This document shows, one piece after another, positions 25,135 to 55,880 of a stretch of DNA of 64,000 nucleotides. Under the pieces are notes generated by a model, which was not told where the DNA came from, made no database searches, and saw only the letters and a list, made by a program, of their open reading frames with translations. Source of the DNA: Syntrophales bacterium (GTDB taxonomy: Bacteria > Desulfobacterota > Syntrophia > Syntrophales > UBA2210); the NCBI GenBank assembly GCA_963666365.2, contig CAXXNF010000001.1, positions 224,001 to 288,000 of the forward strand, written 5' to 3'. Every line of letters starts with the position of its first letter. The first letter of the stretch is position 1. Both the position numbers and the translations under genes were made by a program.

Positions 25135-25533
25135 TCACCGCTCGCTGATGCACTGAAGTACGTAGATCGCTTCCGTCAAATCAATGCGGTCGTCGGCATT
25201 CACGTCGCCCCCGATAAAAGTCAACCCCGTATCCATACTGCAGGCGAGTTTGGCCGCCACGATCGCGTCCTCAAGTCCGATAACACTATCGGCGTTCACG
25301 TCTCCGGGTATAGATCCCTCCACAAGGCGGAGGATATTCCCCATGGCGTCGTAGGTATAGCGGATGATCTTGCCGTTGTCGTAATTGACCCCCGTGAGCC
25401 TTCCCGCCTGGTCGTAGGTATAGGTAACGGTTCCGGCCCCGGCAGCAAGGGGCGCCCCGATACACAGAATCAAAAGAACAGCCACCCAGGTTTTTCCCGA
25501 CCTGCTTGCATTCCTCGCTTCACTCCTGAACAT
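25135..25533 (-). CDS. Secreted YD-hairpin + dockerin-like protein (partner of RHS-1)
   Basis: Signal peptide; YTYDQAGRLTGV..YTYDAMGNI; GDVNADSVIGLEDAI..GDVNADDRIDLTEAIYVLQ; start after a GAGGTG RBS. Confidence 0.85.
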   Translation of the reverse strand: MFRSEARNASRSGKTWVAVLLILCIGAPLAAGAGTVTYTYDQAGRLTGVNYDNGKIIRYTYDAMGNILRLVEGSIPGDVNADSVIGLEDAIVAAKLACSMDTGLTFIGGDVNADDRIDLTEAIYVLQCISER

Positions 25534-25612
25534 ATGCACACCTCACAATTCCCGAGAATATAAAAATGAGTCGAACGTAGACTTGCCCCTATCTCCCGGA
25601 AAATCCGTTTTG

Positions 25613-28600
25613 CTATTCGGGGGAAAAGCCCATCCTTTTGAGTTCTTTTTCGGCTGCGTCCACACTTTGCCTGAAGGATTCAGCCTGCTCCATGCGCTCC
25701 CGTGCACTATATATCTCTGCCTCACAGTCCTGGATGAGACCGGCGATTGAGGGAGAGTCATAGTGACCAGCTGCCTCATCTAAAATTTTATCCAGCAGTG
25801 CGTATTCCTTATGAATTATCTCTTTGTTTTTCGGCTGTTCGAGTTCACGGATTTTCGCCCTCCCCTCGGAGACCCTCTTCAACAATGCGTTGACCTTCTT
25901 CTCGATCCGGACCGCTTTTTGCTGCATTTCCCTTCTTCCCATAAAGGACAACTTCTTGATAATCTTAATGCTATGGGCAAGAAAACAACGAACCATGTGA
26001 AGATCAAAATCTTCGCAGTCTTCATACAGGTCCGCATGATCAATGCAGCTCTGGTAAACCAATGCTTCAGTCTTTGCACGTTCATACTCCCGATGCAGAT
26101 CGAGGAACTCTGAGGGAGTCATCGTTGCAGTCGGCGCAAAGCCCGTTACGTCCACCGTGGAAACAGGATTGGCGTAGGCGTAGAGGTAGGGATTGAGCAT
26201 ATGCAGATCCGGCTCCTGGGGCCGGAGGGGTTCCGGCGACAGAAATCGACCGTTCCCTGCATCGTAGTAACGGGCACGTATGTGGAAGAGATCTCCGCCC
26301 TCGCCTTCCTGGCGCACCCCCCACTTGCCCGCATAGGTAAAGAACTGGAGGCTTTCGCCCTGGTGCCCCAGGACCCGGCCGTAGGGAGTATAGGCGTAGG
26401 CGTCCGTCACCAGCCCGTTTTCATCCGTGAGGGCCAGTGTCGAACCGGTCAGATTGAAATGGTAGAACCTGACCGAGGGCTCCGCCGTCGCCATGCCTAT
26501 GCTGTAGAGGAGCTCTCCCTCTGGACTCCATACGTAATAACGGGTCACCGTGCCGGTCGCTCCCACCTCCTCCGCCACGACGGGATGGAGACCGATGCCG
26601 TAGTTGTAGTGGTAGCGGGTGGTGCTGTCGTCTTCGGTCCGGGTCAGGAGATCCCCCATTCCGTTGTAGGACAGGTCTGTGTCGTCCACCCTCGCAAGCA
26701 GGGATTCCGCGTTCCACTGGAAACGGTGCGAGGGCGATGAGGTGGTGTTGCCCGCATTGTCCGAGGAATGACCGGGGGATTGCGGGCTGCAGGCGCTGTC
26801 GTATGCGTAGTGGCGTGTGCGAAAGCCCAGCGCTTCGGCAGGATCCAGGGGCACGGTCATGTCCGCGGAGACGACCTGGCCTGCATTGTCCAGGGTGTAG
26901 GCGCAATCGACGATGCTGCCTTCCTGTATGCGTACAAGTTCGCCCGCACCGTTGTAGGTGTAGGTCCCGTTGACGCCGTTTGAACGGGTGATCCCGGTGA
27001 GACGCCGGTCCCGGTCGTATGAAAGGGTCATCCACGTGCCGGTCAGGGTATCACCCAGGCCGGTGAGCAGTCCCGTGTCCCCGTCATAGGAATAATCCAC
27101 ATTGAAGTCGTTCCCGTAGGATGCCGTTACCAGCCGCCCTGCCCCGTCATAGACGGCGCCGAAAGTCTTTCCCCCTGTGGAGGTGGTTTCAACCAGTCCT
27201 TCGGCATCCCTTGTCAAAATGAGACCTTCGGTGGAGGTGAGACGGCCGAGTTCGTCGTATTCATAGGTGAAAACGGTCCCGTCTGAGCAGGTCTTCCCGG
27301 TGACGTTTCCTGCGGCATCCCTGATGAGAGACACGCTACGCCCGTCGGATCCGGTCTCGGAGGAGACCCTTCCCTGATTGTCGTATTCATAGGTTATTTT
27401 ATACCCGGAAGGAGTGGCGGCCGATTCCATGCGGCCGGATTCGGAACGGGTAAAAGGCCAGGAATTGCCCCTTCTGTCCGTAATACCGGTGAGCGCACCC
27501 ATGGCATCGTACTGAAGGGTCATGGTACCGGTTTCCGGAAGGGTGATCGACGAGAGGTTGCCGCCGGGTCCATATGCAAGACCGCCGGTCCTGCCCAGGC
27601 CGTCGGTGACCGAGATGATCCTGTTCATGGCATCCCACTCAAAATAAATGCTGCGGCCGCAGGCATCGGTCATCCGGGTCACCTGCCCCAAAGCGTCCGT
27701 CACGTATCCGGTGGTATACCCCAGGGGTGTGGTGCGGGAACTCACCACGCCTTCCGCGTCGTAGGCGGTCTGCCACGTGTCTCCGCCCCGGGTCATACCG
27801 ACCAGACGGCCAAGGGAATCGTAATGAAAAACGCTTGCCACACTCGCAGGGTCGGTCATGGAGGAAATCCGCCCCATGGTATCGTAACCGGTTGTGGTTA
27901 CCGCCCCGGTCCTGTCGGTGGCGCTTACCGTCCTGTCCATATCGTCAAAAACCAGGGATGCGGCATTTCCCGTGGGATCGGTAATCGAGGTCAGGTTTCC
28001 GTTCGTATCGTAGGTGAATTGATAGGTGCTGCCGGTGGGATGGGTGATTCCGGTTATACGGTCGTTCCCGTCGTAGTCCATGGTGGTGGTGGAAGTTCCC
28101 GCCACGGTAATACCGGTTCGCCTGCGCATGGCATCGTAGGTGAATGCGGCGGTCACGCCGTCGGGATCGGTTGCGGATGCGGCGGTCCCGTCGGTATTGT
28201 AGGTATAGGTAGTAGTGCCTCCCACAGGATTGGTGCTCGAGGTCATGCGGCCCTGTTCGTCGTAAACAAATGTCCATGTCTCGCCGGAGGGGTCCGTCAT
28301 GGAGGTAATATTCCCTCTTTCATCGTAGGCCAGGCCAAGGGATGTCCCGTCAGGGTAATCTTCCTTTGTCGGGTCGTGAAACGTGAAGTTCACTGACTCT
28401 TCGTCTTCCGGGTGGCTGAATGTCTGCTCCTGTGAGGTATAGGTATAAGAAATCCTGTTTCCGAGTGCATTGGTCACCGAAGTCGTAAAACCGGTGTCGG
28501 GGTCCGACGTCAAGGTCGCCACCCCGCCGAGCCGGTCGGTGACGCCTGTGATTTCGTCCCGGACGGAGTCGGATGAAAATTGCGCCGTATTGCCGGCAGG

Positions 28601-30925
28601 ATCGGTCAAGGATTTTGCCACCCGGCCCTGGTGATCGTGCCGGTATGTGTAGGAAGTGCCGTCGGGCCTGGTCTCGGTCAGGGAGCTTTCCTCACTTATA
28701 TAAGGCACAAACTCCTCCCCTTCCGAATCCTGAAGGGAAAGTGTCGTCACGTTTTCATCGGCATCCTGCTGAGTCGCCGCTACGCCGCCGCCCTCCCGAT
28801 AGGTCTGCCTGTAGGGGGTGTTTCCCTCGGGATAGGTCACGCCGGTAATGGCGCCGTAACCGGCATAGGCAAAAGTGGTTGATGCGGCCATGGGATCAAT
28901 TACGGACCGCAGGACCAGTTCCTGAGGGTTGTCCGTTGGATTTTCCTCGTAGGCAAGGTCGAAGGTACGGCCCTGGTCGTCGGTAACCGACACCAGATAC
29001 TTGTTCGTATCCTGCGTTCCGACCTGGGCGTAGGCAAAGGAGAGGGATCGGCCCAGGCCGTCTTCCACCGATTCGGGCATGTGGGAGAAATCCCCTTCAC
29101 CGTAGCGGTACGTGAGGACGTTGCCGTTGCGGTCCTCGATGCGGACCAGACGTGCCCGGGAGGCCTGGGTCACCGCCGCCAGATAGACGTCTTCCTGTGA
29201 TTCGTTGACCACACCGTCGACCAATGTCGTTGCCCCGGTGTAAAAAACTACGAAACCTCCATCCGCTGAGATGGAGGACCGAAAACAGCCATCATCCGCC
29301 TCGACGCCTGCGCTGCTGACGCTCGCCCGCGTGGTGGCGCTTCCCTCCATGTCCCGAACGAACACGTCGTAGGACCAGTTCATGTCGTCCGCTACGAGAT
29401 TTGAAGCCCAGGACTCGAAAGCCACAAAGCGGCCGTCCGCCGAAATGGACGGATAACGCGAGCTGTTGTCGGATGCGGCGCCTTCCATACCCACGCTTAC
29501 CAGAACGGTGGCTGTTTCTTGACTGTCGTACAGGAAGACATCCGAACGCCCGTTTGTATCACCTGCAACGAGATTGGTAGCAGACGAGTAAAAGGTCACG
29601 TACCGGCCGTCAGCGGACAGGGATGGCCATTCCGAACTGCTGTCGCCTTCCGTTCCCTCCGAGTCTACGCTCACCCGTGTGGTCGTACCCGTCTCCCGAT
29701 CATGGACGAAAACGTCCCTGGCACTGTTGGCATCGTCCGAAACCAGGGTGCTCGCTTCTGAGGTAAAGGCCACATAGCGGCCGTCTGCCGAAATCGCGGT
29801 GTAAAAAGAATTGCCATTACCCTGGGTCCCGTCCGAATGGATACTTACCAGCGTGGTTTCTCCGGTCTGCCTGTCATGGATAAAAACATCCTTCATCTCG
29901 TTTACATCGTTCTCTACCAGATTTGAGGCAGAGGAGGCAAAGGCCACATAGCGGCCGTCTGCCGATATGGCAGCATAGGAGGAATGACCGTTTCCCTGCG
30001 TTCCGTCGGAGGACACGCTCACAAGACAGGTCTCGCCCTGTTCCCGATCGCAAACGAATATATCCTCATACCCGTTCACGTCGCCTTCAACCAGATCGGA
30101 TGCGTAGGATTCAAAGACTACATACCGGCCGTCCGGGGTAATGGCGGGATTACGCGAAATATTGTTTCCCGACGTCCCTACAGGCGTCACGCTGACCAGA
30201 GAGACCTGTCCCGATGCTCTGTCGCGTACAAAAACGTCCATTTTCCCATTGGTGTCGGGGGTCACAAGGTTGGAAGCCACCGATCCAAAGGCCACGACAC
30301 GTCCTCCTTCGGAAACGCATGCGACGGTTGACCAATTATCCGCCTCCGCTCCTTCGGAGGTCTCGCTTATACGCTCTGAGATCGCCATGGACCAGGGAAT
30401 CGCCTCTTTCTTATAGGAGTATACCAGCTCTTCTTCGGGCTGGAGAAGATAGAAAAACCCGTCCGTTTCCTTAAGACTGCACCGCACACCCTCGAGGGAA
30501 AAGGGCTCCCAGGCAGCGCCGTTTTTGCGGAACCCGTATTCCTTTCCCGCGCCGATGTCCGCATAGACCTCTTCCGGCGTTGTATCGGCATAGCGCGTCA
30601 CACCGCCCGTGTGGGTCCCGGCGAATACCGATGGCAGGCCGTCGGAAAAACGCTTGGCATCCATTTGTGAACCGTAGAAAAGAGAAAAGGAAACCGGCAA
30701 CGGCCCGCCCAGATCGAAGGGATTCATGGTGAAGAAATACTCGCCTGTGGCGGCATTAATCGGATCGCCCACTTTCAACACCGTCGTTTCTGTTTTGGAG
30801 ATCCCTATCTTCGAATATTCTGTCGGTTCCTCGCCATTGGCAGCACAGGTGACACCCAGAAGCAGCACGACAACAAGCAAGAGTATCATCCCCCGCATAC
30901 CGAGTGGGTTCATCTCATTTCGCAT
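25613..30925 (-). CDS. RHS-1: signal peptide, DUF6531-like start, inserted 7-blade TolB/PD40-like beta-propeller, YD shell, RHS core, helical C-terminal domain
   Basis: GDPINAATGE; 7 repeats of the type ISADGRYVAF.S.ASNLV..D.N...DVF; many YD repeats; RARYYDAGNGRFLS and NPYLYAYANPVSTVDVTGF. Confidence 0.92.
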   Translation of the reverse strand: MRNEMNPLGMRGMILLLVVVLLLGVTCAANGEEPTEYSKIGISKTETTVLKVGDPINAATGEYFFTMNPFDLGGPLPVSFSLFYGSQMDAKRFSDGLPSVFAGTHTGGVTRYADTTPEEVYADIGAGKEYGFRKNGAAWEPFSLEGVRCSLKETDGFFYLLQPEEELVYSYKKEAIPWSMAISERISETSEGAEADNWSTVACVSEGGRVVAFGSVASNLVTPDTNGKMDVFVRDRASGQVSLVSVTPVGTSGNNISRNPAITPDGRYVVFESYASDLVEGDVNGYEDIFVCDREQGETCLVSVSSDGTQGNGHSSYAAISADGRYVAFASSASNLVENDVNEMKDVFIHDRQTGETTLVSIHSDGTQGNGNSFYTAISADGRYVAFTSEASTLVSDDANSARDVFVHDRETGTTTRVSVDSEGTEGDSSSEWPSLSADGRYVTFYSSATNLVAGDTNGRSDVFLYDSQETATVLVSVGMEGAASDNSSRYPSISADGRFVAFESWASNLVADDMNWSYDVFVRDMEGSATTRASVSSAGVEADDGCFRSSISADGGFVVFYTGATTLVDGVVNESQEDVYLAAVTQASRARLVRIEDRNGNVLTYRYGEGDFSHMPESVEDGLGRSLSFAYAQVGTQDTNKYLVSVTDDQGRTFDLAYEENPTDNPQELVLRSVIDPMAASTTFAYAGYGAITGVTYPEGNTPYRQTYREGGGVAATQQDADENVTTLSLQDSEGEEFVPYISEESSLTETRPDGTSYTYRHDHQGRVAKSLTDPAGNTAQFSSDSVRDEITGVTDRLGGVATLTSDPDTGFTTSVTNALGNRISYTYTSQEQTFSHPEDEESVNFTFHDPTKEDYPDGTSLGLAYDERGNITSMTDPSGETWTFVYDEQGRMTSSTNPVGGTTTYTYNTDGTAASATDPDGVTAAFTYDAMRRRTGITVAGTSTTTMDYDGNDRITGITHPTGSTYQFTYDTNGNLTSITDPTGNAASLVFDDMDRTVSATDRTGAVTTTGYDTMGRISSMTDPASVASVFHYDSLGRLVGMTRGGDTWQTAYDAEGVVSSRTTPLGYTTGYVTDALGQVTRMTDACGRSIYFEWDAMNRIISVTDGLGRTGGLAYGPGGNLSSITLPETGTMTLQYDAMGALTGITDRRGNSWPFTRSESGRMESAATPSGYKITYEYDNQGRVSSETGSDGRSVSLIRDAAGNVTGKTCSDGTVFTYEYDELGRLTSTEGLILTRDAEGLVETTSTGGKTFGAVYDGAGRLVTASYGNDFNVDYSYDGDTGLLTGLGDTLTGTWMTLSYDRDRRLTGITRSNGVNGTYTYNGAGELVRIQEGSIVDCAYTLDNAGQVVSADMTVPLDPAEALGFRTRHYAYDSACSPQSPGHSSDNAGNTTSSPSHRFQWNAESLLARVDDTDLSYNGMGDLLTRTEDDSTTRYHYNYGIGLHPVVAEEVGATGTVTRYYVWSPEGELLYSIGMATAEPSVRFYHFNLTGSTLALTDENGLVTDAYAYTPYGRVLGHQGESLQFFTYAGKWGVRQEGEGGDLFHIRARYYDAGNGRFLSPEPLRPQEPDLHMLNPYLYAYANPVSTVDVTGFAPTATMTPSEFLDLHREYERAKTEALVYQSCIDHADLYEDCEDFDLHMVRCFLAHSIKIIKKLSFMGRREMQQKAVRIEKKVNALLKRVSEGRAKIRELEQPKNKEIIHKEYALLDKILDEAAGHYDSPSIAGLIQDCEAEIYSARERMEQAESFRQSVDAAEKELKRMGFSPE

Positions 30926-30985
30926 CGCAACCTCCCGCGTAACAGTAAGGATAAAAAAAGATCCAAATTTTTATCATGAAAGGGA

Positions 30986-31112: not shown

Positions 31113-34100
31113 TCAGGGCAACCCGGCGGATTTTCGAAGGGTATAGATAAGATCTTCCACGCCTGCCTTCCCGTCGCCGTTTACGTCGCCGGTAACGAAA
31201 CAGTCGTCCGGAACGGTACCGGCGATCACCTGTAACAGTATAACGGAGTCTGCCAGACCGACCTCCCCGTCATTGTTGAAATCGCCCCTTATATACTCAG
31301 AGGAGAAGACGGCTTCGATCACATGATCGGCAATTACGTCGCTGAGGGTATAGTGAGCCGGCATACCGTACAACGGATCGGCGGGGATCACCGCCGCCAG
31401 TACCGACATACCGTCCACGGCGACGTCGATGAGCGACGCGCCAGGATCGGGAACGAACATCCACATATATGATTCGTGATCTTCGAGATACACCGGTTCG
31501 GAAGGCAGGATTTTACCCCTTCCCGAACTGACCGGTGTGATCTCGTGTTCGTTCAGAGCAAATCGCGCCTCTATCGCATGCCCCTCGTTTACGTTGCTGA
31601 AAACGTATGTCTCGACGGGACCGACGGACAGGCCGTCCACAAGAACATCTTCGAGATGATAATTCGCCCCGGCACCCATGTAATAAGTGATTTCGCCGCC
31701 GTGGGTTACGGTGGAATCGCCTGCGGGGTCGATGTACCCCCCGGCGCCCGCCGTTGCGGATATAATATAACGGTTTGCCTCGAACCAGGCCGCGATGGAA
31801 TGGTAATCGTTCGTAACCTCTATAAACGTGTAGGTATCGACCGGTTCGGGAAGCACAAGCCCGTCCACAATTACGGATGATACATGAAACCCCTCGTCGG
31901 CACCGATGGTAAAGGTGAGGTCGCCGCCGTGGTATACGGGCGCTTCTCCCGAAGGATCGATCCAGCCTCCGCTGCCCGCGTCGGCGCTGATCGTGTACTG
32001 CACCGTTCCGAAGGTCGCCTCGACGGTATGGTCGGAAGCGATGTCGTCAAAGGTGTAACTGTCGATCGGTCCCTGCGAAACGCCGTCGACGTGCACATCC
32101 TCGATATAATGACCCCAATCGGCATCGATCGTGTAGACGACGCCGGACGTGCCGTGGTCGTATTCACTCGCGCCGGGAGGCCAAATCGTGCCTCCTGCGC
32201 CTGCAATTGCCGTCACGGTATATCGCTTCAGGGTAAAGACAGCCCCGATCTCCCTGTCCCGATCCACCGAAATCGTGCATGTCGTTCCGCTCCAGGATTC
32301 GACCCCCGTAAATCCTCCGAAGTTGGAGGTTTCATCGGGTGTTGCCAGAAGCGTCACTTCTGTTCCCGCGAGGAATTCGGCACTGCACAGGTCGCCGCAC
32401 TCGATGCCGCCCGGTATCGAGAGGACGACTCCTCCTCCGTTTCCTTCCCGGACAAGGGTGAAGGTATAGATTCTCGTGACTTCCGTGTCCATATGAACGG
32501 CATTGTTCGATTCATCGGGATCGATATTCGGGCCTTTCACGGTTGCATCGTTCATAAGCGAATCCGCCCCTCGGGGTGCCTTGAGCGTCAAGGTTACCGT
32601 GGCGGAGGCGCCGGCGGCCAGGCCGCTCAGGACGAACTGCGCCTCCCCGTCGGACGTATTGACAGTCCCCTCGCCGGCGTCGGCGGAAATAAAGAGGGCA
32701 TCCTGCGGAAAGGTATCGACGATACGCACCGACTGCGCATCGTCGGGGCCACGGTTGGTCACGGTAATGGTGTAGGTCAGCGCCTCGCCCGCCAGCACAG
32801 GATCGGCATCGGCACTCAGCGAAACTTCCATGTCCGACAGGCCAACGGTTCGCACCGGCCAGACGTTGGCCCCGTTCATATCGGCTTCCTTGCTCATCGC
32901 GTCGATGCGCATCTCCCAGAAATTGCCCACCCAGGCGACCGTCGCCGGATCGGCAGGCCGACTGGTGGAAGACCAGTACATGCTCCTGACATCCTCAAAG
33001 GGCATGCCGGGGATGGTTCCTCCCTCGCTATATATCTTCGACACATCGAAAAGGCTTGCCAGTTCGTATATTGCGGGCATACGCCAATCTGTGCAAGGAC
33101 TTTCGCTTACCCGATAGGTCCCGTCGTTGATACCGGCGATAAAATCAAGGGCCATCTGCCAGGAGACGCGTCCTTCATTCCGACAATTCCCGAAGGTGTC
33201 GTAGGAGGGATATAATACCCCGACGGGATCGGCCTTCTTCAGCCACTGAAGCCCCGTCATGCTATCGGTGACGGTGCCGTCGCCGTTCTCCTTGAACCGC
33301 ACCGCCGGCGCCGCAAGCCCCCGTTGGAGATCGCCGTCGTCGCCCGTTGCATAGCTTTCGGTCTGTCCCGTTTTCGGGATCTTTGCGGACCCGCTACCTC
33401 TTCCCCGCACGGGAAGGAAAAAATAGTGATTTGTCTTCGCGATTGTCGACAGAGCAGCCGAAGCGCCCAGGGAACAGCGATAGGCGGACGCGGACGAGCT
33501 GTGAAAACTGGTCGAGGTCCAGAAGGCCATGGAATACAGTGAAAAGCCGAATGAATTGAGCCACTCGACAACATTCGACTCTCGGCCGTTCATCACAAGG
33601 CTTGTCATCTCAAAAACATTGGGCACCCGCCAGTCGTTATAGGATGCGGAGTAGCCATAGTTCACGTAATTTTGGGAAGATACATTCAGGGACTGCACGA
33701 GCGCAAACGTGTCCTGCCAGGTCGGCGCCAAATCGCCAAAAAGATCAATGCGGCCTATCCACATGAGTCCCGTGTAGTGATCGGTAATTGTGCCGTCCCC
33801 GTTGTCGGTGAAGCGCGGTTCCGGCCATGGAGGACCAACGTGCAGATCGCCGTCGTCTCCCTGCGCATAGCTCGTCCGTTGTCCTGAAAAGGCCGGGGTG
33901 ATGGGATAGGATATCTCATGAAAGACCACTTCGACAACATGATCGGCTTCAATGTATGACAGCAGCAGTGACCCGGCGACGGGGCCCCTGTCCGTACCAT
34001 CGACGACCACCTGCGCCGTTTCAAACCCTTCGTCCGGGGTGATGGCGATCACCAGCGAATCGCCGTACTCAATCACGCGGCTGCCTGCGGGAATCACCGC

Positions 34101-40136: not shown

Positions 40137-40152
40137 TACAACTTACCTCATA

Positions 40153-44439: not shown

Positions 44440-44793
44440 CTCGCTCTCATATGCGTTCCTTGAAATGTGCTACTATAGGGCATTGTTCATTGTTTTCAAA
44501 GCATTTTATTCTCACTTTTTTCAAGGAATAGAAAACGTATAGACAGGGCATCACAATAATGTTATGTAGGAAATAATATTTTTTCAAAAGCACGTTAACA
44601 ATTGAGCATGGCAATTGCAACGATGGTCTGAGTCATTCATATCACGCATACAGGACCGATCTCAGGCATGTTACCTGCGCTGCTCTTCTGAAGGGAAGTT
44701 TTCATACTTCATATCGACTTAAAATAAAATCTGTTTAGTACCATATAGTAACTATCGATGGCCTGAATCACGCCATCCTGAGGAGTGTATGAT

Positions 44794-47700: not shown

Positions 47701-49722
47701 GTACGCAACGAGTTTGACGCCTTCTGGCAAATCAGGGCGACCGACGAAAACGGCAACCAGACACGGGTCGAGCGAAACCGCTTCGGCTACATCACCATGT
47801 TGAGACCGCCCCTGTGGAACGACAGTTTCTACGAATACGACAGGGACAACAATCTGATCAAAGCCACCGATCCGTTGAGAAGAGCCACCTACAACGGCTA
47901 CGACAAGAACGGACGGCTTTATATGACAAGAGACGCCCGGAATAACACCGTATACCGCTACTACGACAAGGAAGGAAACCTGGTCCGGCTCAGAGACCAG
48001 CGTGCCAACGAAACCCGGTTCGATTATGACTCGAACGACCGGTTGACGGACACTACCGACCCGCTGGCACGAACCATCACCTACACCCGTGACGCTCTGG
48101 GCCGCATTGCGGAACAGACAAACAAACGGGGGCAGAAGGTGGCGTTCTCCTACGACGGAGAAGGCCGCATGACATCAAAACGATATGACGGCACGGAGGA
48201 AGCGGCATACACCTACGATGCCGCCGGTAACCTTACCCAAATGATCGATGACTGGGGAACCACCACATATGACTACGATGAGCGAAACCGGGTAACCGCA
48301 ATCACCTATCCGGACACTATGACCCTTTCTTTTACCTACGACGAACTGGGCAACTGCAGTTCCCTCACCTACCCCGACGGCCAGACGGTACGCTACACCT
48401 ACGACGATGTGAACCGGATCACGATACCGCGGGGCCTGAGAAACGGCGCCAATATCGAAATACGGCCGAACAGGGAAAAGCCGAACCGGATCACCGCCAT
48501 GAACTGGGGGGAGACTCACTCCGTCACAGGCGACTATGACCCCGCCGCCCGTTTGATCACACAGACCCGCTCAAACGGCGCCGTGACCGAGTTTTCCTAC
48601 GACGCCAACGACCGGGTAACGGGGATCAATCACAAAAAAGGGGACACCCCCCTTCTCGAACTGAATTATACCTATGACGACGCGGACAACCTGCTTTCCG
48701 AACTTTCCTCAGATCCCGTCACACCGGCCGTGAGCGATGCCTCCCTGGCAGCGACTGTCGACGCCGCCAACCAAATCAGCCGGCTGGGAAGCGACACGTA
48801 CACCTTCGACAGCGACGGCAATCGAATCGGAGTAAGCAGTGGTCAATTCGCCGCCGTCTACGACCCGGAAAACCATGCCACGCAGATCACCCGCAACGGG
48901 GTCGCCGCCGCCTGCACCTACGACGGACAGGGCATGATGGTGCAGCGCACAGTGGACGGCGAGACCACCACCTACCACTACGACGATGCGGGACGCCTCC
49001 TTTTTGAAACGGATAGTTCGGGCGCCGTGAGCAACACCTATATATACATGGGCAGAAAACCGGTTGCCATGGGAACAAAGGACAGCGGATACAGGTTCTT
49101 TCATTTCAACAACCTCGGAAACACGCTCGCCCTGACCGACGCGACCGGTTCGGTCATCAAACGGTACGCCTACCAGCCTTACGGGGCCGCGACCGGCAGT
49201 GGGTCAGAGATTTCGAACCTCTTCACCTTTGTGGGCGCTCACGGCGTCATGGATCTGGGCGACGGCCTGTTTCTGATGAAACGCAGGCTCTACGACGCCC
49301 GGAGCGGCAGGTTCCTGCAGACCGACCCCATCGGCATCGCCGGCGGGATCAATCTTTACACCTATGCCGAGAACAATCCCCTGCGCTACATCGATCCCGA
49401 AGGCACCTCAATCCTCCTTGCTTACGCGGCAGGTGCAGCTATAGTCGCTCTCGCAGTGGTCATTTTGACACCAGCCGACGACACAAAAGATGCCGACCAG
49501 ACGACAGATGCCGGCTTTCACGAACATGCCGAGCAGGCAGCTGAAAATAGGGTGAAGGGTGCACAAAAAGTGAAAGAAGCCAAAGGTACGGGAAACAAGT
49601 TCAGAGCCTTTACGGACGCGTACTATGAATCCAAAGAAGATACTCGTAAATTGGCTCCAAAGGCGGGTGAGGAGGCAGTAGAGAAAGTCGGAAAGGGGTA
49701 CTTACGGGTACTAAGGCGTTAG
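44794..49722 (+). CDS. RHS-2: signal peptide, PQQ-like beta-propeller, DUF6531-like region, YD shell, RHS core, short C-terminal domain
   Basis: GAGGAG RBS then MNRPLSIV; STPVV, G.QLW, SPAV repeats; VNTATLNL..FGHGWRF; RRLYDARSGRFLQTDPIG..NLYTYAENNPLRYIDPEG. Confidence 0.92.
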   Translation: MNRPLSIVLSCLILVICVLAAPSAPLFAEPGSLLWRSPLSSGGPCTWSTPVVTGSRCYVQDQEGGIYCFNTADGEQLWYKKLSGGWPTASPVYKNGKLFVFAGSGIDFDVVDTVYRLDPLSCGAVETQFTPAPGVAISAMSPAVSDTMVYVPTSSTLYAIDAGTFEKAWEMSVPGASVIIGGEILYVLADKLYGVDAQTGKEYWRMDPPHSTGFDMGALSGDILVAYTKYSGSPDYVSKLHAFRLSPENMGASLLATSVDPPSLLWSFTPTDHAYSDWSPPAIDASISRVYAVNRAGYLWAFDLEGDGTLLWNRPVRGSGMASAKPVALDGKVYIQAAGTSGEYGTPHWLVCYDVNELEKFLEYDDPNDPDTFWQSESLVDLWNANATPEDIERRAQWEADGFTIGEMKTAWGSPAVVNGKVYIATDHGGGVLAFEGEPSEHSWYMISQNPHLTGSVDGSQKDFYNSPSTLGLSVDNATTAFGFSDQPPMRIGLPDYQVNTATLNLVLQGTLFWMKTRGPSVAAALVYNADHTLHSGLFGHGWRFAYESTATIGCSSHAIDIRKGSGQVLTFTSTEDLTADPDTLDYPLELTPPTGNFDRVTVYEGYCEWFEKSSRFTYRYDKSTLEGSQIYYLTSITDRNGNRIDVEVDRTNGHITSVTGPADRQLTMTYDADSRCTQIATPAFDSRSLAFEYDEEGFLTAVTDMAGYRSTYEYDDDGYMTRMTRDSHWATFEYASRGSGLGKYVTKVTDSDVGWTLYELLKQDPVEVRRTSRQGKARIFKSNDGLTGSVTDPLGNVSTIGYENKLPVSFKDRNGHIERLVYDNRGNVTTQIDALNRWTRFSYNSDDTLHSMTNPLSETWYYAYDSHQNLTRVTSPEGNITQISYDSYGQVNKITDPNGHVTDYYYDIWGNLKTVEDPLGNVTRFGYDGSHLHCIYITDARDNEKQILYDDNDRLSRVYYGPDYEGPSVRNEFDAFWQIRATDENGNQTRVERNRFGYITMLRPPLWNDSFYEYDRDNNLIKATDPLRRATYNGYDKNGRLYMTRDARNNTVYRYYDKEGNLVRLRDQRANETRFDYDSNDRLTDTTDPLARTITYTRDALGRIAEQTNKRGQKVAFSYDGEGRMTSKRYDGTEEAAYTYDAAGNLTQMIDDWGTTTYDYDERNRVTAITYPDTMTLSFTYDELGNCSSLTYPDGQTVRYTYDDVNRITIPRGLRNGANIEIRPNREKPNRITAMNWGETHSVTGDYDPAARLITQTRSNGAVTEFSYDANDRVTGINHKKGDTPLLELNYTYDDADNLLSELSSDPVTPAVSDASLAATVDAANQISRLGSDTYTFDSDGNRIGVSSGQFAAVYDPENHATQITRNGVAAACTYDGQGMMVQRTVDGETTTYHYDDAGRLLFETDSSGAVSNTYIYMGRKPVAMGTKDSGYRFFHFNNLGNTLALTDATGSVIKRYAYQPYGAATGSGSEISNLFTFVGAHGVMDLGDGLFLMKRRLYDARSGRFLQTDPIGIAGGINLYTYAENNPLRYIDPEGTSILLAYAAGAAIVALAVVILTPADDTKDADQTTDAGFHEHAEQAAENRVKGAQKVKEAKGTGNKFRAFTDAYYESKEDTRKLAPKAGEEAVEKVGKGYLRVLRR

Positions 49723-49856
49723 TAAAGGATGTCATAGCGGGAGCATCAGCTGTGACAGGGGTCTCGGGATTACACCTAATCCGTAAAGCTCCGGAAAAAT
49801 AATGCATCGCATCGCATTGCATTGCATACATGCTTCATCACACAGGGAGTGATATT

Positions 49857-50240
49857 ATGAAGAGACGCATCCACTCAGTTTTACTCATAGCGGCCATGTG
49901 TTTCATCTGCACTGCCGCAGCGGCTGCCACCTACACCTATGACGAGCTGAACCGTCTCACGAAAGTCGTCTACGGCTCCGGCAGCGACGGGACCTTGTCG
50001 TACATCGAATACACCTACGATACGGCCGGCAACATCACCCTCATCAGTTCCCTCGGGAATATATTATATGGCGATGTCGACAACAACCGGACAGTCGATC
50101 TGGCCGATGCCATCATGTCGCTTCGGATCGTAACCGGCCAGAGCGTCTCTCCTCCCAACGTCCGGAAAGCGGCGATCAACAACGACCAACGGATCGGCCC
50201 TGAAGAGACGATATACATTATGAAGAAAATATCCGAGTGA
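49857..50240 (+). CDS. Secreted YD-hairpin + dockerin-like protein (partner of RHS-2)
   Basis: Signal MKRRIH..TAAAAA; YTYDELNRLTKV..YTYDTAGNI; YGDVDNNRTVDLADAI..INNDQRIGPEETIY. Confidence 0.88.
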   Translation: MKRRIHSVLLIAAMCFICTAAAAATYTYDELNRLTKVVYGSGSDGTLSYIEYTYDTAGNITLISSLGNILYGDVDNNRTVDLADAIMSLRIVTGQSVSPPNVRKAAINNDQRIGPEETIYIMKKISE

Positions 50241-50533
50241 CTCCTGTAGCTGCCATCCTTCAAAAATTAATTAATCCGGTTCATCATTTCCAACCTTTCA
50301 AAGCCAATAAGTACGCAAGAACCGGATGAACCTGTTTTTTTCTGCCTTTCGGCGTCTTGCGGGAACAAATAAATCAGTTACTTAGAAGTAGACAGGACAT
50401 CACAATAATGTTAGGTTGAAAGCAGTTTTTTTTCAAAGCTACCTCACATCGCGCGAATATAAAAACTGTTTTTTTCGGTAGCATACAGCAACTATCGATG
50501 GCCTGAATCACGCCATCCTGAGGAGTGTGTGAC

Positions 50534-53500
50534 ATGAACAGGCCTTTCGCTGTAATTCTCTCTTGTGTGACTCTTGTAATTTGTGTACTTGCAGCAACCT
50601 CTGCCCCTCTCCTGGCCGAACCCGGCACGCTGCTCTGGAGATCGCCCCTGTCGAGCGGTGAACCAAGCACCTGGTCCACTCCAGTGGTGATAGGCGACAG
50701 GTGCTATGTGCAGGATCAGGCTGGCGGCATCTACGGTTTTCGAACAACCGACGGGGAGCAGCTCTGGTATAAAAAGGTTTCCGGAGGCTGGCCGGTTTCG
50801 TCGCCCGTCTACAGAAACGGCAAATTGTTCATGATGGCCAGCAGCAACAATGAAATTGACAGCAAGGATCCTTATGTTGTCGATACTGTCTACCGGCTCC
50901 ACCCCGACTGCGGGCGTATTGAAAAGCAGTTTACCCCTGAGGTCGGCGTCTCCATCAATGCAATGTCTCCGGCCGTATCCGATTCCCTGGTGTACATACC
51001 CACCTTTTCAAAACTCTACGCCATCGATGTCAATACCTTCGAACCGGTCTGGGAGATGGCCGTCACCGGGGCAAGCGTCATCATCGGCGGCGACATCCTC
51101 TATGTGCTTGCCGATAAACTCTATGGCGTGAATGCCGAAACCGGAGAAGAATACTGGCACATGGATGCCCCCCACAGTACCGGATTCGACATGGGGGCGC
51201 TCTCCGGGGATATTCTGGTGGCCTTTACAAAGTATTGTTGGACGGACTATTTCTCAACGCTGCATGCCTTCAGGCTGCATCCCGAAAATATGGAGATTCC
51301 CCCTCCCACAGAGACTCCGCCCTACCGGATCGACCCTCCGGAAGTTATCTGGTCTTATGCCTATCGCACCGGGCTTCTGGAGACCGCAGGGTCGTCCGAC
51401 TTCTCTCCCCCCGCAATCGACAGCAGCACGGCAACCGTGTATGGGATTAACAGATCCGGGGTTCTGAAAGCATTCGCCCTCGAAGGCAATGGAGAACCGC
51501 TCTTCATGATGGGTGTCAGGGATAATGGCCTGGCTTCGGCCAAGCCGGTGGCCCTTGACGGAAAGATTTACATACAGGTAGGATCCGGCACCTCCTATTA
51601 TCTTCGCTGTTTTGATGCACGTAATCTCCCTGGCGTCCCTCCCGTACTATGGGCGTCAGAATCGCTGGGGAGTGGCGGCGAGATGCAGGTTGCCTGGGGA
51701 TCACCTGCTGTAGTGGATGGCAGAATTTATATCGCCACCGACCATGGCGGCGGCCTGCTGTGTTTTGAAAGCGATCCTTCGGAACACAGCTGGTACATGC
51801 TCACCCAGAACCCCAATCTGACAGGGTCTGCGGGCGGCTGGAAAAAGGATTTCGGCAATTACCCTGCCACCCTCGGTCTGGCCACAGACAACGAAAATAC
51901 CGCCTTCGGCTTCAGCGATGAGCCGCCCATGAGAATCGGGCTGCCCGATTACCAGGTGAACACGGCTACGCTCAACCTTGTATTGCAGGGAACCCTGTTC
52001 TGGATGAAAACCCGCGGCCCTTCAGTTGCCGCCGCCCTGGTGTACAACGCCGACCACACCGCACCATCGGGCCCTTTCGGTAACGGCTGGCGATTTGCCT
52101 ATGAATCCACCGTGGAAATCGACTGCAGCGGTAAAAACGCGGAATTACGAAAAGGCTCCGGCCAGGTCATTACTTTTTCATCCAGGAAAGATCTTTTATC
52201 TGATACGCTTTCCTACCCCCAGAATCTGTCGCCCCCCACAGGCAATTTCGACGGTTTTATCGCCTATAACGGCTACTATGAATGGTTCGAGAAATCCTCC
52301 CGCTTTACTTACCGGTACGATTTTTCAACCATTCACGGACCGGCGCTTGCCTACCTGACCGCCATTACCGATCAGAACGGCAACCGTGTGACGCTGGATG
52401 TGGACCTCGCCACTGGAAAGATCAGCAGGATCACCGGGCCGGCAGAGCGCCAATTGACGCTGACCTATGACGATAACAGCCGCTGCATTCAGATCACAAC
52501 CCCCGCCTTTGATTCCCGGACGATACGATTCGAATATGACGAAGAGGGGTTTCTCACGGCAATCAACGACATGGCCGGTTACCGAAGCATCTACGAATAC
52601 GATGACGACGGCTACATGACCAAGATGACCCGGGACAGCCACTGGGCATCCTTCGAATACGCATCCCGGGGATCGGGCCTTGGGAAATACGTGACGAAGG
52701 TCACGGACAGCGATGTCGGGTGGACCCTCTATGAACTTTTGAAGCAGGACCCGGTGGAGGTACGGCGCACCAGCCGGCAGGGCAAAGCGAGAGTTTTTAA
52801 AAGCAACGACGGCCTGACCGGGTCGGTGACAGACCCCCTGGGCAACGTCAGCACCATCGGCTACGAGAACAAGCTGCCCGTCAGTTTCAAAGACAGAAAC
52901 GGGCACATAGAGCGGATGGTATACGACAACCGGGGAAATATCATCACACAGATAGACGCCCTGAACCGTTGGACCCGGTTTTCGTACAACAGCGATGACA
53001 CGCTTCACTCCATGACCAACCCGCTTTCCGAAACCTGGTACTACGCATACGATTCGCATCAGAACCTGATACGAGTCACCTCGCCCGAAGGCAACATCAC
53101 ACAGATCAGCTACGACGAATACGGTCAGGTCAACACAATCATCGACCCCAACGGCCATGTCACCAATTATTATTACGACAGCTACGGCAATCTGAAAACC
53201 GTGGAAGATCCCCTGGGCAATGTCACCCGGTTCGGCTATGACGGATCCAAGCTCCACTGCATATTTATCACCGATGCACGGGGGAACGAAAAACAGATAC
53301 TCTACGACGACAACGACCGCCTGAGCCGCGTCTATTATGGGCCGGACTACGAAGGACCCAGCGTACGCAACGAGTTTGACGCCTTCTGGCAAATCAGGGC
53401 GACCGACGAAAACGGCAACCGGACACGGGTCGAGCGGAACCGCTTCGGCTACATCACCAGGCTGAGTCCGCCCCTGTCGAACGACAGTTTCTACGAATAC

Positions 53501-55375
53501 GACAGGGACAACAATCTGGTCAAGACCACCGATCCGTTGAAAAGAACCACCTACAACGGCTACGATAAGAACGGACGGCTTTATATGACAAGAGACGCCG
53601 GGGGACACACCGTATACCGCTATTACGACAAGGAAGGCAACCTGGTCCGACTCAAAGACCAGCGTGAAAACGAAACCCTCTTCGATTACGACTCGAACGA
53701 CCGGTTGACGGAAAACACCGACCCGCTGGAACGAACCATCACCTACACCCGTGACGCTCTGGGCCGCATTGCGGAACAGACAAACAAACGGGGGCAGAAG
53801 GTGGCGTTCTCCTACGACGGAGAAGGCCGCATGACATCAAAACGATATGACGGCACGGAGGAAGCGGCATACACCTACGATGCCGCCGGTAACCTTACCC
53901 AAATGATCGATGACTGGGGAACCACCACATATGACTACGATGAGCGAAACCGGGTAACCGCAATCACCTATCCGGACACTATGACCCTTTCTTTTACCTA
54001 CGACGAACTGGGCAACTGCAGTTCCCTCACCTACCCCGACGGCCAGACGGTACGCTACACCTACGACGATGTGAACCGGATCACGATACCGCGGGGCCTG
54101 AGAAACGGCGCCAATATCGAAATACGGCCGAACAGGGAAAAGCCGAACCGGATCACCGCCATGAACTGGGGGGAGACTCACTCCGTCACAGGCGACTATG
54201 ACCCCGCCGCCCGTTTGATCACACAGACCCGCTCAAACGGCGCCGTGACCGAGTTTTCCTACGACGCCAACGACCGGGTAACGGGGATCAATCACAAAAA
54301 AGGGGACACCCCCCTTCTCGAACTGAATTATACCTATGACGACGCGGACAACCTGCTTTCCGAACTTTCCTCAGATCCCGTCACACCGGCCGTGAGCGAT
54401 GCCTCCCTGGCAGCGACTGTCGACGCCGCCAACCAAATCAGCCGGCTGGGAAGCGACACGTACACCTTCGACAGCGACGGCAATCGAATCGGAGTAAGCA
54501 GTGGTCAATTCGCCGCCGTCTACGACCCGGAAAACCATGCCACGCAGATCACCCGCAACGGGGTCGCCGCCGCCTGCACCTACGACGGACAGGGCATGAT
54601 GGTGCAGCGCACAGTGGACGGCGAGACCACCACCTACCACTACGACGATGCGGGACGCCTCCTTTTTGAAACGGATAGTTCGGGCGCCGTGAGCAACACC
54701 TATATATACATGGGCAGAAAACCGGTTGCCATGGGAACAAAGGACAGCGGATACAGGTTCTTTCATTTCAACAACCTCGGAAACACGCTCGCCCTGACCG
54801 ACGCGACCGGTTCGGTCATCAAACGGTACGCCTACCAGCCTTACGGGGCCGCGACCGGCAGTGGGTCAGAGATTTCGAACCTCTTCACCTTTGTGGGCGC
54901 TCACGGCGTCATGGATCTGGGCGACGGCCTGTTTCTGATGAAACGCAGGCTCTACGACGCCCGGAGCGGCAGGTTCCTGCAGACCGACCCCATCGGCATC
55001 GCCGGCGGGATCAATCTTTACACCTATGCCGAGAACAATCCGATAAAAAATATCGACCCAGAAGGCACCTCAATCCTCCTTGCTTACGCGGCAGGTGCAG
55101 CTATAGTCGCTCTCGCAGCGGTCATTTTGACACCAGCCGACGACACAAAAGATGCCGGCGATACGTCATTTTTGGATGATGCCAGCCAGACATTTGAGAA
55201 AAATCAGCGGAATGAACAAAAAGTGAGAGAAGCCGCAAATACGGGAGACCGGTACCGTGTCGTGGCGGAAAGTTTACATGAGCAAAAAGAAGATATTCGC
55301 AGATTGGCTCCAAAGGCGGGTGAGGAGGCAGTAGAGAAAGTCGTAAAGGGAACATTTCGGGCACTAAGGCAGTAA
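50534..55375 (+). CDS. RHS-3: tandem paralog of RHS-2
   Basis: Same architecture; NLYTYAENNPIKNIDPEG; propeller loops and C-terminal tip diverged. Confidence 0.92.
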   Translation: MNRPFAVILSCVTLVICVLAATSAPLLAEPGTLLWRSPLSSGEPSTWSTPVVIGDRCYVQDQAGGIYGFRTTDGEQLWYKKVSGGWPVSSPVYRNGKLFMMASSNNEIDSKDPYVVDTVYRLHPDCGRIEKQFTPEVGVSINAMSPAVSDSLVYIPTFSKLYAIDVNTFEPVWEMAVTGASVIIGGDILYVLADKLYGVNAETGEEYWHMDAPHSTGFDMGALSGDILVAFTKYCWTDYFSTLHAFRLHPENMEIPPPTETPPYRIDPPEVIWSYAYRTGLLETAGSSDFSPPAIDSSTATVYGINRSGVLKAFALEGNGEPLFMMGVRDNGLASAKPVALDGKIYIQVGSGTSYYLRCFDARNLPGVPPVLWASESLGSGGEMQVAWGSPAVVDGRIYIATDHGGGLLCFESDPSEHSWYMLTQNPNLTGSAGGWKKDFGNYPATLGLATDNENTAFGFSDEPPMRIGLPDYQVNTATLNLVLQGTLFWMKTRGPSVAAALVYNADHTAPSGPFGNGWRFAYESTVEIDCSGKNAELRKGSGQVITFSSRKDLLSDTLSYPQNLSPPTGNFDGFIAYNGYYEWFEKSSRFTYRYDFSTIHGPALAYLTAITDQNGNRVTLDVDLATGKISRITGPAERQLTLTYDDNSRCIQITTPAFDSRTIRFEYDEEGFLTAINDMAGYRSIYEYDDDGYMTKMTRDSHWASFEYASRGSGLGKYVTKVTDSDVGWTLYELLKQDPVEVRRTSRQGKARVFKSNDGLTGSVTDPLGNVSTIGYENKLPVSFKDRNGHIERMVYDNRGNIITQIDALNRWTRFSYNSDDTLHSMTNPLSETWYYAYDSHQNLIRVTSPEGNITQISYDEYGQVNTIIDPNGHVTNYYYDSYGNLKTVEDPLGNVTRFGYDGSKLHCIFITDARGNEKQILYDDNDRLSRVYYGPDYEGPSVRNEFDAFWQIRATDENGNRTRVERNRFGYITRLSPPLSNDSFYEYDRDNNLVKTTDPLKRTTYNGYDKNGRLYMTRDAGGHTVYRYYDKEGNLVRLKDQRENETLFDYDSNDRLTENTDPLERTITYTRDALGRIAEQTNKRGQKVAFSYDGEGRMTSKRYDGTEEAAYTYDAAGNLTQMIDDWGTTTYDYDERNRVTAITYPDTMTLSFTYDELGNCSSLTYPDGQTVRYTYDDVNRITIPRGLRNGANIEIRPNREKPNRITAMNWGETHSVTGDYDPAARLITQTRSNGAVTEFSYDANDRVTGINHKKGDTPLLELNYTYDDADNLLSELSSDPVTPAVSDASLAATVDAANQISRLGSDTYTFDSDGNRIGVSSGQFAAVYDPENHATQITRNGVAAACTYDGQGMMVQRTVDGETTTYHYDDAGRLLFETDSSGAVSNTYIYMGRKPVAMGTKDSGYRFFHFNNLGNTLALTDATGSVIKRYAYQPYGAATGSGSEISNLFTFVGAHGVMDLGDGLFLMKRRLYDARSGRFLQTDPIGIAGGINLYTYAENNPIKNIDPEGTSILLAYAAGAAIVALAAVILTPADDTKDAGDTSFLDDASQTFEKNQRNEQKVREAANTGDRYRVVAESLHEQKEDIRRLAPKAGEEAVEKVVKGTFRALRQ

Positions 55376-55496
55376 AGGGTGTCATATCGGAAACTTAAGC
55401 TGCGACAGGGGCCCCGGGACTAAACCTAATCCGGGAAGCTCTGGGAGAATAATGCATCGCATTGCAAACATGCTTCATTACACACGGGGAAATATT

Positions 55497-55880
55497 ATGA
55501 ATAGACGAATCCAATTAGTTCTACTTATAGTGGCCATGTGTTTTACCTGCACTGCCGCAGCGGCAGCAACCTATACCTACGATAAGCTGAACCGGTTGAC
55601 TAAGGTCGTCTACGGCTCCGGCAGCGACGGGACCTTGTCGTACATCGAATACACCTACGACGCGGCCGGAAACATCACCCTCATCAGTTCCCTCGGGAAC
55701 GTATTGTATGGCGATGTCGACAACAACCGGAAAGTCGATCTGGCCGATGCAATTATGTCTTTCCAGATCGTAACCGGCCAGAGCATCTCTCCCCCGGAAG
55801 TACGGAAAGCGGCGATCAACGATGACCGGCAGATAGGCCCGGAAGAGGCGATCTACATTCTGCGCAAAATATCTGAGTGA
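55497..55880 (+). CDS. Secreted YD-hairpin + dockerin-like protein (partner of RHS-3)
   Basis: Close paralog of 49857-50240. Confidence 0.88.
   Translation: MNRRIQLVLLIVAMCFTCTAAAAATYTYDKLNRLTKVVYGSGSDGTLSYIEYTYDAAGNITLISSLGNVLYGDVDNNRKVDLADAIMSFQIVTGQSISPPEVRKAAINDDRQIGPEEAIYILRKISE

Follow-up and report, generated by a model that had tools for sequence, protein, structure and literature searches.

A recurrent two-gene module in a Syntrophales bacterium pairs RHS shell proteins with a small YD-repeat, dockerin-like protein, a candidate accessory subunit of RHS capsules

In a stretch of 64,000 nucleotides from the genome of a Syntrophales bacterium (assembly GCA_963666365.2, contig 1, 224001-288000; hereafter the window), three genes for RHS proteins are each followed, on the same strand and after 73-107 bases, by a small open reading frame (ORF) of ~130 codons that combines two YD repeats with a dockerin-like tail. 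Coordinates below are window positions unless stated. A first-pass annotation, made from the sequence of the window, had described this arrangement and proposed that the small protein joins the RHS shell through its YD hairpins and supplies a dockerin in trans. The ORF coordinates, when checked, and the Pfam matches agree with the arrangement as described. Here, we follow the pair of genes through this genome and its relatives and weigh what the small protein, called the partner below, may do.

The three RHS proteins are of two types. RHS-1 (25613..30925, minus strand, 1770 aa) consists of a signal peptide, a split DUF6531 domain, a PD40 propeller (Pfam PD40, 7.3e-16) and a YD shell (RHS_repeat, 6.9e-70), and its core ends in ...VDVTG at residue 1595, ahead of a helical C-terminal domain of 175 aa (~25616-26140, minus strand). 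RHS-2 (44785..49722, plus strand, 1645 aa) has a signal peptide, a PQQ propeller (PQQ_2, 1.3e-20), DUF6531 (residues 501-575) and a YD shell (RHS_repeat, 3.1e-70), with the core end ...IDPEG at residue 1540 and a C-terminal domain of 105 aa (49405-49719, plus strand) made up of one hydrophobic helix and a charged helical remainder. RHS-3 (50525..55375, plus strand, 1616 aa; RHS_repeat 2.3e-70, PQQ_2 1.5e-14) is a paralogue of RHS-2 with the same architecture, its DUF6531 lying at residues 477-551, its core end at 1514 and its C-terminal domain at 55067-55372 (plus strand); the C-terminal domains of RHS-2 and RHS-3 both contain a hydrophobic helix. All three proteins have the YD shell of RHS toxins, with RHS_repeat E-values of about 1e-70 each, and the AlphaFold model of RHS-3 residues 477-1616 (predicted local distance difference test, pLDDT, 86.6; predicted TM-score, pTM, 0.80) consists nearly entirely of β-hairpins. 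The autoproteolysis motif at the end of RHS cores has the consensus PxxxxDPxG(L); RHS-2 and RHS-3 carry it as ...NNP(L/I)..IDPEG, and RHS-1 has a variant, ...NPVSTVDVTG, in which the proline is lost. Searches of the RHS C-terminal domains against Pfam, NCBIfam and the PDB sequences returned no match, to a known toxin family or otherwise.

The partners are partner 1 (25135..25539, minus strand, 134 aa; RHS_repeat 2.1e-9), partner 2 (49830..50240, plus strand, a 136-aa ORF and probably 127 aa from ~49857; RHS_repeat 4e-7) and partner 3 (55452..55880, plus strand, a 142-aa ORF and probably 127 aa from ~55497; RHS_repeat 8e-8). Since a public protein collection lists partners 2 and 3 at 127 aa, their true starts are probably internal Met codons. 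The small ORFs share one plan: a signal-peptide-like start, two YD repeats above the Pfam RHS_repeat cut-off (hereafter the YD2 unit), and then D-x-N-x-D-type loops and helices that form the tail. In partner 3, the YD2 unit occupies residues 38-84 (55563-55703, plus strand) and the tail 55704-55877. In the AlphaFold model of partner 1 (mean pLDDT 83.4), strands are found at residues 38-42, 48-53, 58-63 and 69-75 and helices at 89-99 and 121-133, and the four strands superpose on Rhs cores (8qjd_B, root-mean-square deviation (rmsd) 0.8 Å over 41 columns; Foldseek E > 0.001). There is no whole-partner model in NCBIfam, and the partner has 575 database relatives, a named one being Dalk_4503 of Desulfatibacillum aliphaticivorans ('YD repeat protein').

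Both members of each pair appear to be exported. The N-termini of RHS-1, RHS-2, RHS-3 and the three partners, read by eye, show a basic stretch followed by a hydrophobic stretch, and in the partners also small residues, in keeping with the Sec-type signals assigned to them earlier. The absence of PAAR genes and of those for a type VI secretion system (T6SS) that had been noted for the window extends to the whole genome (94% complete), in which neither a T6SS sheath (VipB/TssC) nor PAAR gave a match. With no VipB or PAAR in the genome and Sec-type N-termini, the RHS proteins of the window do not qualify as T6SS effectors. No TcA was found either, in a search whose control likewise matched nowhere and which is therefore uninformative.

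The pairing of the two genes is not confined to the window. A search with partner 1 found five full-length small copies in this 4.0-Mb genome, each directly after an RHS ORF, the two outside the window lying at contig 1, 32599-33024, and contig 2, 1673936-1674310. A profile of these five partners was then run on 301 genomes of the same class, and seven more whole-profile matches (from position 15 or earlier to 134, in a frame of at most 194 aa) were found in six genomes, each of the seven having an RHS ORF of its own strand immediately upstream. Moreover, in Desulfatibacillum alkenivorans DSM 16219 and in one Desulfatibacillum metagenome-assembled genome, which belong to the same phylum-level group as this genome, the small gene abuts an RHS gene of ~1440 aa. 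In total, every placed full-length YD2-dockerin gene (14/14: 5 in this genome, 7 in related genomes and 2 in Desulfatibacillum) directly follows an RHS gene, and the suggestion that the module is recurrent is borne out. This adjacency spans separate families, two RHS core types and differing N-terminal domains, and it is not due to chance. No further ORF lies between or after the two genes, and since unrelated housekeeping genes, among them those for glutamine synthetase, nitroreductase, threonine synthase and solute-binding proteins, lie on either side, the unit is two genes and nothing more.

Several further matches were left out of this count. A match at positions 11-133 in a 574-aa frame of genome G190 was not counted, a rescan having matched the tail alone; five fused YD-plus-tail forms (in G087, G036 and G041:C51, and two in G030) are BACON, TIG, reprolysin or NosD giants with a dockerin rather than RHS proteins; and small 'dockerin' ORFs at contig 1, 122029 and 1228769, of this genome resemble 3' pieces of broken larger genes, not adaptors. 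Apart from these, a decayed second dockerin-like tail, with one TGA and one TAA inside, is found directly downstream of the partner gene of genome G016 (contig 1, 1244690-1244905, minus strand).

Partner and RHS C-terminal domain have evolved very differently. The ratio of nonsynonymous to synonymous substitution rates (dN/dS) of three partner pairs is 0.22, 0.17 and 0.15, by which measure the partner is under purifying selection. In the C-terminal domains of RHS-2 and RHS-3, dN/dS reaches 2.05 (102 codons; significance not tested), which suggests diversifying selection. Among 12 RHS C-terminal domains compared, 8 BLAST-unrelated groups are found, and the 12 partners that accompany them are all mutually homologous. 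A toxin-specific immunity protein would vary with the toxin and the partner does not, so a classical immunity protein, which the downstream gene of an RHS toxin normally encodes, is ruled out; nor is there any toxin-covarying immunity gene downstream of the RHS genes of the window, the sole downstream gene being the conserved partner. In addition, a stretch of RHS-2 (48139..49338, plus strand) is 100% identical to 53801-55000 in RHS-3, and this 1.2 kb of complete identity, which takes in the final third of the shell and with it the docking site predicted below, points to recent gene conversion. It stops ~20 codons before the core end (49404), identity being 90% over the following bases (49339-49438) and then 61-77% in the C-terminal domain. 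Partners 2 and 3 are 80-90% identical, as in the rest of the duplicated region, and in a hand count their residues differ at 2/47 positions of the YD2 part and at 12/56 of the tail; on this comparison, the YD2 part is the best-kept region of the partner.

The tail had been read as a dockerin-like pair of calcium-binding repeats, and this reading, the least secure element of the description, stands in part. Dockerin_1 (PF00404) is the sole Pfam match on the partner tails, at 17.1 and 17.2 bits compared with a curated cut-off of 22.9; many database members of the family bear precomputed PF00404, and one tail from a related genome scores 24.8. The modelled tail of partner 1 superposes on solved dockerins (6kgf) with target-normalised TM-scores of 0.70-0.75 and an rmsd of ~2.3 Å, all at Foldseek E > 0.001. 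Judged by this profile match and predicted fold, 'dockerin-like' is a fair name for the tail, while 'dockerin' is not proven. The same module ends the neighbouring 3007-aa secreted giant (31113..40136, minus strand; four Lcl_C domains, NosD/β-helix, DUF11, InlB B-repeat), whose tail at ~31128-31298 scores 20.8 bits against Dockerin_1 and matches the tail profile at residues 2947-3003; here, the dockerin-like tail is used in cis on a non-RHS protein. A profile of five tails (E <= 0.01) identified 37 further ORFs in this genome, the 3007-aa giant among them, of up to 3855 aa, 32 of them at least 500 aa long, and in 29, of which 26 are at least 500 aa, the module is found no further than 10 residues from the C-terminal end. 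None of the 11 RHS ORFs of the genome carries it, and the contrast drawn earlier between the giant and its RHS neighbours thus holds throughout the genome.

A search for cohesins, the binding partners of dockerins, found two proteins in this genome with matches above the Pfam cut-off: a 1002-aa protein (contig 1, 806714-809722) in which an N-terminal cohesin (45.3 bits) is followed by eight CarboxypepD_reg domains, and a 203-aa ORF (contig 1, 826658-827269) that comprises a signal peptide, a cohesin (32.7 bits) and little besides. Cohesins are present in 20 of the 301 genomes of the class sample, and 17 of these 20 fall among the 41 genomes with partner-profile matches, a co-occurrence which serves as description rather than as a test because related genomes are not independent. 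A cohesin is present in five of the seven class-sample genomes that carry the partner, and the genome of D. alkenivorans DSM 16219 encodes cohesins together with 18 other tail-bearing proteins. On contig 56 of the latter genome (29577-30164), a 241-aa frame combines a cohesin (37.5 bits) with a dockerin-like tail and is possibly a small adaptor scaffoldin. In the Syntrophales genome, a cohesin-dockerin cluster at ~800-830 kb of contig 1 includes the 1002-aa cohesin protein and two giants with internal dockerin-like modules, as well as a 133-aa ORF with half a dockerin and an STN-domain protein; the small cohesin gene, for its part, adjoins pseudopilin-like genes, so called from prepilin-type N-termini read by eye.

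The YD2 unit has a wider distribution than the dockerin-like tail. In a 401-genome sample of the phylum, the full YD2-dockerin form occurs solely in this genome and D. alkenivorans, and 31 other matches consist of a signal peptide and YD2 with different tails (YD2-X). Of 20 such loci inspected, 10 immediately follow an RHS ORF in the same orientation, one is adjacent but divergent (L217) and three are too near a contig end, so that 17 are informative; for six of these, at least 2.6 kb of upstream sequence contains no RHS ORF. The tails of the RHS-linked members are PKD (three cases), FN3/Ig-like, InlB B-repeat, FG-GAP, TSP3, or none. A metagenome scan yielded 79 loci, in which one match spans the whole partner (L068, with a TSP3-like tail) and the rest are again a signal peptide and YD2 with other tails. 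In Caulobacter sp. KR2-114, a 119-aa ORF stands directly upstream of a 1504-aa RHS ORF; it has two YD repeats after a signal-peptide-like start but no tail. The YD2 unit looks like the RHS-directed part of these proteins and the tail like an exchangeable outward module. Since many tail types follow one YD2 unit, decoration in trans fits better than a role for dockerin only, and since tail-less members exist, the YD2 unit may have a function of its own. The earlier proposal of a dockerin supplied in trans is favoured by the distribution of the tail and by the cohesins, but dockerin is only one of many YD2 tails (PKD, FN3, FG-GAP, TSP3 or none); likewise, co-occurrence with RHS genes is complete for the 14 placed genes of the YD2-dockerin form, but 6/17 YD2-X genes with other tails or none lack it.

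Binding of the partner to the RHS protein is predicted by a model of the complex, which was built from RHS-3 residues 552-1502 (the shell, which begins where DUF6531 stops and was cut shortly ahead of the core motif; a 101-row alignment) and partner-3 residues 38-84 (61 rows). The complex scored 0.81 over three runs, compared with 0.00 for the best of three controls with unrelated proteins. A mark of 0.81 is attained by 116/157 solved complexes and by 2/215 mismatched pairs, benchmark counts that apply only roughly because our own alignments were used as input. The runs share at least 97% of their contacts, and the pLDDT of the partner is at least 81. The predicted docking site comprises RHS-3 residues 1272-1308 (54338..54448, plus strand), that is, two consecutive YD repeats joined by a strap: the four partner strands are placed between the two repeats, and the strap, 14 residues long (1281-1294) and containing two prolines, crosses over them. 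Partner strand 39-43 pairs antiparallel with RHS-3 1276-1280 and partner strand 76-79 with 1295-1297, and additional contacts involve the adjacent ring (1007-1047) as well as the C-terminal plug (1438-1500). The contacts lie away from the N-terminal cut at 552, and a few (1496-1500) fall just ahead of the C-terminal cut at 1502, within the plug. The predicted contact set is coherent with a position in the wall of the last ring of the shell, and the model supports binding without demonstrating it. The proposal that the partner augments the β-sheet of the shell thus gains a predicted strand pairing with two RHS-3 wall strands, though one that comes from a model with unrelated proteins as its controls. 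At the docking site, YD motifs are spaced 28-32 residues apart in 14/14 partner-linked RHS proteins versus 20-23 residues in all 6 partner-less RHS ORFs of this genome.

We propose that the partner is a trans-acting accessory subunit, for decoration or tethering, whose YD hairpins join the wall of the RHS capsule and whose dockerin-like tail is a handle for cohesin-based attachment; we would put the probability of this reading at roughly 45%. It draws on the observed gene architecture, synteny, pattern of selection and conservation, tail distribution, presence of cohesins and apparent lack of T6SS markers. The RHS gene and the small gene would form a self-contained two-gene unit, both products of which would be exported through Sec, and the RHS protein would fold as the usual YD capsule round its variable C-terminal domain. 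Since the capsule would enclose the RHS C-terminus, that end would be unavailable for an external module. The two YD hairpins of the partner, from its mature N-terminus, would instead enter the β-sheet of the capsule, sitting in the last ring between consecutive repeats that are bridged by the proline-containing strap, beside the C-terminal plug, and its C-terminal dockerin-like calcium-binding module would face outward. Because the same tail ends dozens of mostly giant ORFs and cohesins are present, the partner would give the capsule the same cohesin-based attachment, which would tether it to a scaffold or to the cell surface. We infer, in this scheme, the physical binding (from the model), recognition of a cohesin by the tail, the location of the complex and any role in release.

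A number of findings weigh against this proposal. The partner tails of the window fall below the Pfam dockerin cut-off, partners 2 and 3 have a degenerate second loop, and the copy on contig 2 has lost the first half of the module. Two partner-bearing genomes, G128 (100% complete) and G287, have no cohesin, and six of the 17 informative YD2-X genes have no RHS neighbour. The complex model covers the shell but neither the propeller and N-terminal plug nor the toxin domain; with unrelated proteins as controls, its score could reflect a generic artefact in which any YD hairpin joins any YD sheet, and solved TcB-TcC complexes may have primed the model. In addition, AlphaFold gives a confident shell for RHS-3 477-1616 by itself, with the strap as coil and the corresponding block (model 811-820, or residues 1287-1296) at pLDDT 73; as the strap is only mildly uncertain, there is no obvious hole awaiting a partner. 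RhsP, a T6SS effector of solved structure, has a stretch of the same length aligned to the strap, and the spacing there is 27-34 residues in 101/101 of the closest RHS-3 homologues, taken without regard to partner status. RhsP is not known to have a partner gene of this kind. The strap as a partner-specific adaptation is accordingly not upheld, RhsP and all 101 homologues sharing it. Moreover, solved Rhs shells are described, in passages of two accounts, as a continuous strip closed by two plugs (PMC8636562; bioRxiv 10.1101/2024.02.26.582050).

Alternatively, the partner may be a helper in export or folding, its YD2 unit holding or seeding the last ring in the periplasm and its tail, by which the lineage would also direct its large secreted proteins outward, taking the RHS protein with it, with tethering secondary or absent. 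The Sec signals on RHS and partner alike would suit such a role, as would three secretins in a genome in which no T6SS sheath or PAAR was found, the pseudopilin-like genes (by the same by-eye reading) beside the small cohesin gene, and the place of the tail, which sits like a sorting tag at the very C-terminus of 29 ORFs (26 being at least 500 aa long); tail-less YD2 proteins also suit a shell-directed role better than a tether. On the other hand, the genome does contain true cohesin domains, which co-occur with the tail, the alternative tails (PKD, FN3, FG-GAP and TSP3) are binding modules rather than sorting tags, and to our knowledge no secretion signal is dockerin-like. We consider an export helper unlikely.

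It could also be argued that the two proteins have no physical link, the partner being an independent secreted adhesin whose YD hairpins derive from RHS 3' sequence and whose adjacency reflects descent or co-transfer. The 6/17 informative YD2-X genes without an RHS neighbour, the Caulobacter copy upstream of its RHS gene and the divergent copy at L217 would all be expected in that case, and the complex model may be an artefact. Yet adjacency holds in 14/14 cases over separate families, two RHS core types and differing N-terminal domains and flanks, the partner is under purifying selection, and the YD2 unit is its best-kept part (2/47 versus 12/56 differences in the tail between partners 2 and 3), and we regard mere neighbourhood as rather improbable. 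Next comes a non-classical form of protection, in which the secreted partner would cap or neutralise the producer's own or sibling RHS capsules at the cell surface, in place of toxin-specific immunity. The partner does occupy the position of an immunity gene, with no other candidate ORF, and in genome G141 it is still retained beside an RHS ORF reduced to a 770-aa 3' piece, as an immunity gene might be; its secretion would suit a toxin acting from outside, and RHS-2 and RHS-3 have a hydrophobic helix in their C-terminal domains. However, a single conserved partner family accompanies 8 unrelated groups of C-terminal domains, the partner shows no diversification at loci where the C-terminal domain has diverged, and the predicted contact is with the shell wall rather than with the toxin, so that protection appears improbable in turn.

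A bolder form of the accessory-subunit proposal, and a long shot in our estimate, makes the partner a removable pin in the wall of the last ring, by which the capsule would hang from the cohesin scaffold of its producer. The N-terminal propeller or lectin domain would bind the target, the strap beside the C-terminal plug would hold the pin, and pulling or loss of calcium would withdraw its four strands and open a side exit through which the enclosed C-terminal domain could leave.

Other loci bear on the RHS family of this genome and on the surroundings of the module. Six RHS ORFs, in three paralogue pairs, have no partner; they have glycine-rich hydrophobic C-terminal domains and small membrane-protein ORFs downstream, which is the classical pattern. 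Such partner-less loci, at 1174-1187 kb of contig 2 and at 727-747 kb of contig 1 (where one RHS ORF occupies 740174-746965), contain small multi-pass membrane ORFs (likely immunity genes), orphan 3' RHS fragments and a repeated ~219-aa ORF that may encode a REP-associated tyrosine transposase. Two near-duplicate partner-less RHS genes (contig 1, 381955-387723, minus strand, and 864741-870434, plus strand) carry TcdB_toxin_midN (68.9 bits), a domain confined to these two genes in this genome, and resemble TcB-TcC fusions. The partner-linked RHS ORF at contig 1, 27885-32531, begins as called within an Lcl_C domain and has no signal peptide, whereas its relative in genome G016 has both a signal peptide and the Lcl_C domain; its 5' end may be truncated or frameshifted. 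Directly downstream of partner 1 in the window are genes for two paralogous 129-aa cysteine-rich proteins with signal-peptide-like starts (24037-24426 and 24599-24988, both minus strand) and without a Pfam or NCBIfam match, and a promoter-like site (10 of 12 positions) at 25055-25027 (minus strand) lies between partner 1 and the first of them. In scans for promoters and terminators, the three RHS-partner spacers gave counts at the level of shuffled sequence, with none on the coding strand within the spacers.

The module shares features with several known systems and differs from each. It is like classical Rhs toxin/immunity loci, such as those of T6SS Rhs1/Tre23 of Photorhabdus laumondii (PMC8636562) and RhsP (PDB 8h8a), in its YD shell, and RhsP aligns to RHS-3 residues 1237-1514 with an E-value of 3.6e-32; the core likewise ends in a DPxG-type motif (IDPEG in RHS-2 and RHS-3), and a variable C-terminal domain is expected within the shell. 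Unlike in those loci, Sec signals take the place of PAAR or VgrG in the RHS proteins here, neither a T6SS sheath nor PAAR was found in the genome, and the downstream gene belongs to one conserved secreted YD2-dockerin family and is not a toxin-specific immunity gene. In Tc toxins, a second protein extends and closes the barrel, as passages of a published account describe (PMC8636562). The YD shell of TcB-TcC consists of two chains that form one continuous β-sheet, and strands in trans are likewise predicted here; in contrast to TcB-TcC, the partner would contribute no more than four strands, whose predicted place is within the last ring, instead of half a shell, and it would carry an outward handle.

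Rhs repeats and dockerins have been brought together before, in the secreted scaffoldins ScaO and ScaP of Acetivibrio cellulolyticus and Clostridium alkalicellulosi, which combine Rhs repeat, cohesin and dockerin modules according to passages of two accounts (PMC6780208, PMC3413522). In ScaO and ScaP, all modules are on a single chain, with the dockerin N-terminal to the Rhs part, and the hosts are Gram-positive cellulolytic Clostridia, whereas in the present module a separate small protein, encoded next to the RHS gene, bears the dockerin-like part. Teneurins and bacterial teneurin-like proteins (PDB 9ifo, 7bam), which are among the sequence and fold matches, unite a propeller, a YD shell and a C-terminal domain in one secreted or surface protein, and passages in PMC8636562 describe teneurins as exposing their C-terminal domain; no small YD2 partner for teneurins turned up in the searches made here. 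The genome also resembles non-cellulosomal cohesin-dockerin systems, in that many secreted proteins end in a dockerin-like module and cohesins are few in a non-cellulolytic organism. Such systems were reportedly found to be widespread by Peer and colleagues in 2009. No account of a small adaptor that couples an RHS capsule to a cohesin-dockerin system was found in the literature searched, which covered papers naming both dockerin and Rhs, in line with the earlier statement that no description was known. The RHS repeat, the shell and the core-motif features are known, and what would be new is the proposed accessory subunit of an RHS system, secreted and conserved.

The deployment of RHS capsules without a T6SS or a TcA injector, and the exit of their cargo, are poorly understood, and passages in two accounts describe the release of toxin from Rhs capsules as unresolved (PMC8636562; bioRxiv 10.1101/2024.02.26.582050). 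A secreted subunit that joins the shell and bears an external binding module would supply a point of attachment for the capsule. Because the module is present in a cultured, non-pathogenic sulfate reducer, D. alkenivorans DSM 16219, with its cohesins and 18 tail-bearing proteins, this idea can be tested at the bench. If the accessory-subunit proposal is true, it would explain how an anchoring module of the C-terminal type comes to be used by a protein whose own C-terminus is buried, and it would define YD2-X as an RHS accessory family across a bacterial phylum. Should the partner also act as a pin, Sec-secreted RHS capsules would have in it a release trigger that depends on neither T6SS nor TcA, and the YD2-X proteins with PKD, FN3, FG-GAP and TSP3 tails would be variants of the same device.

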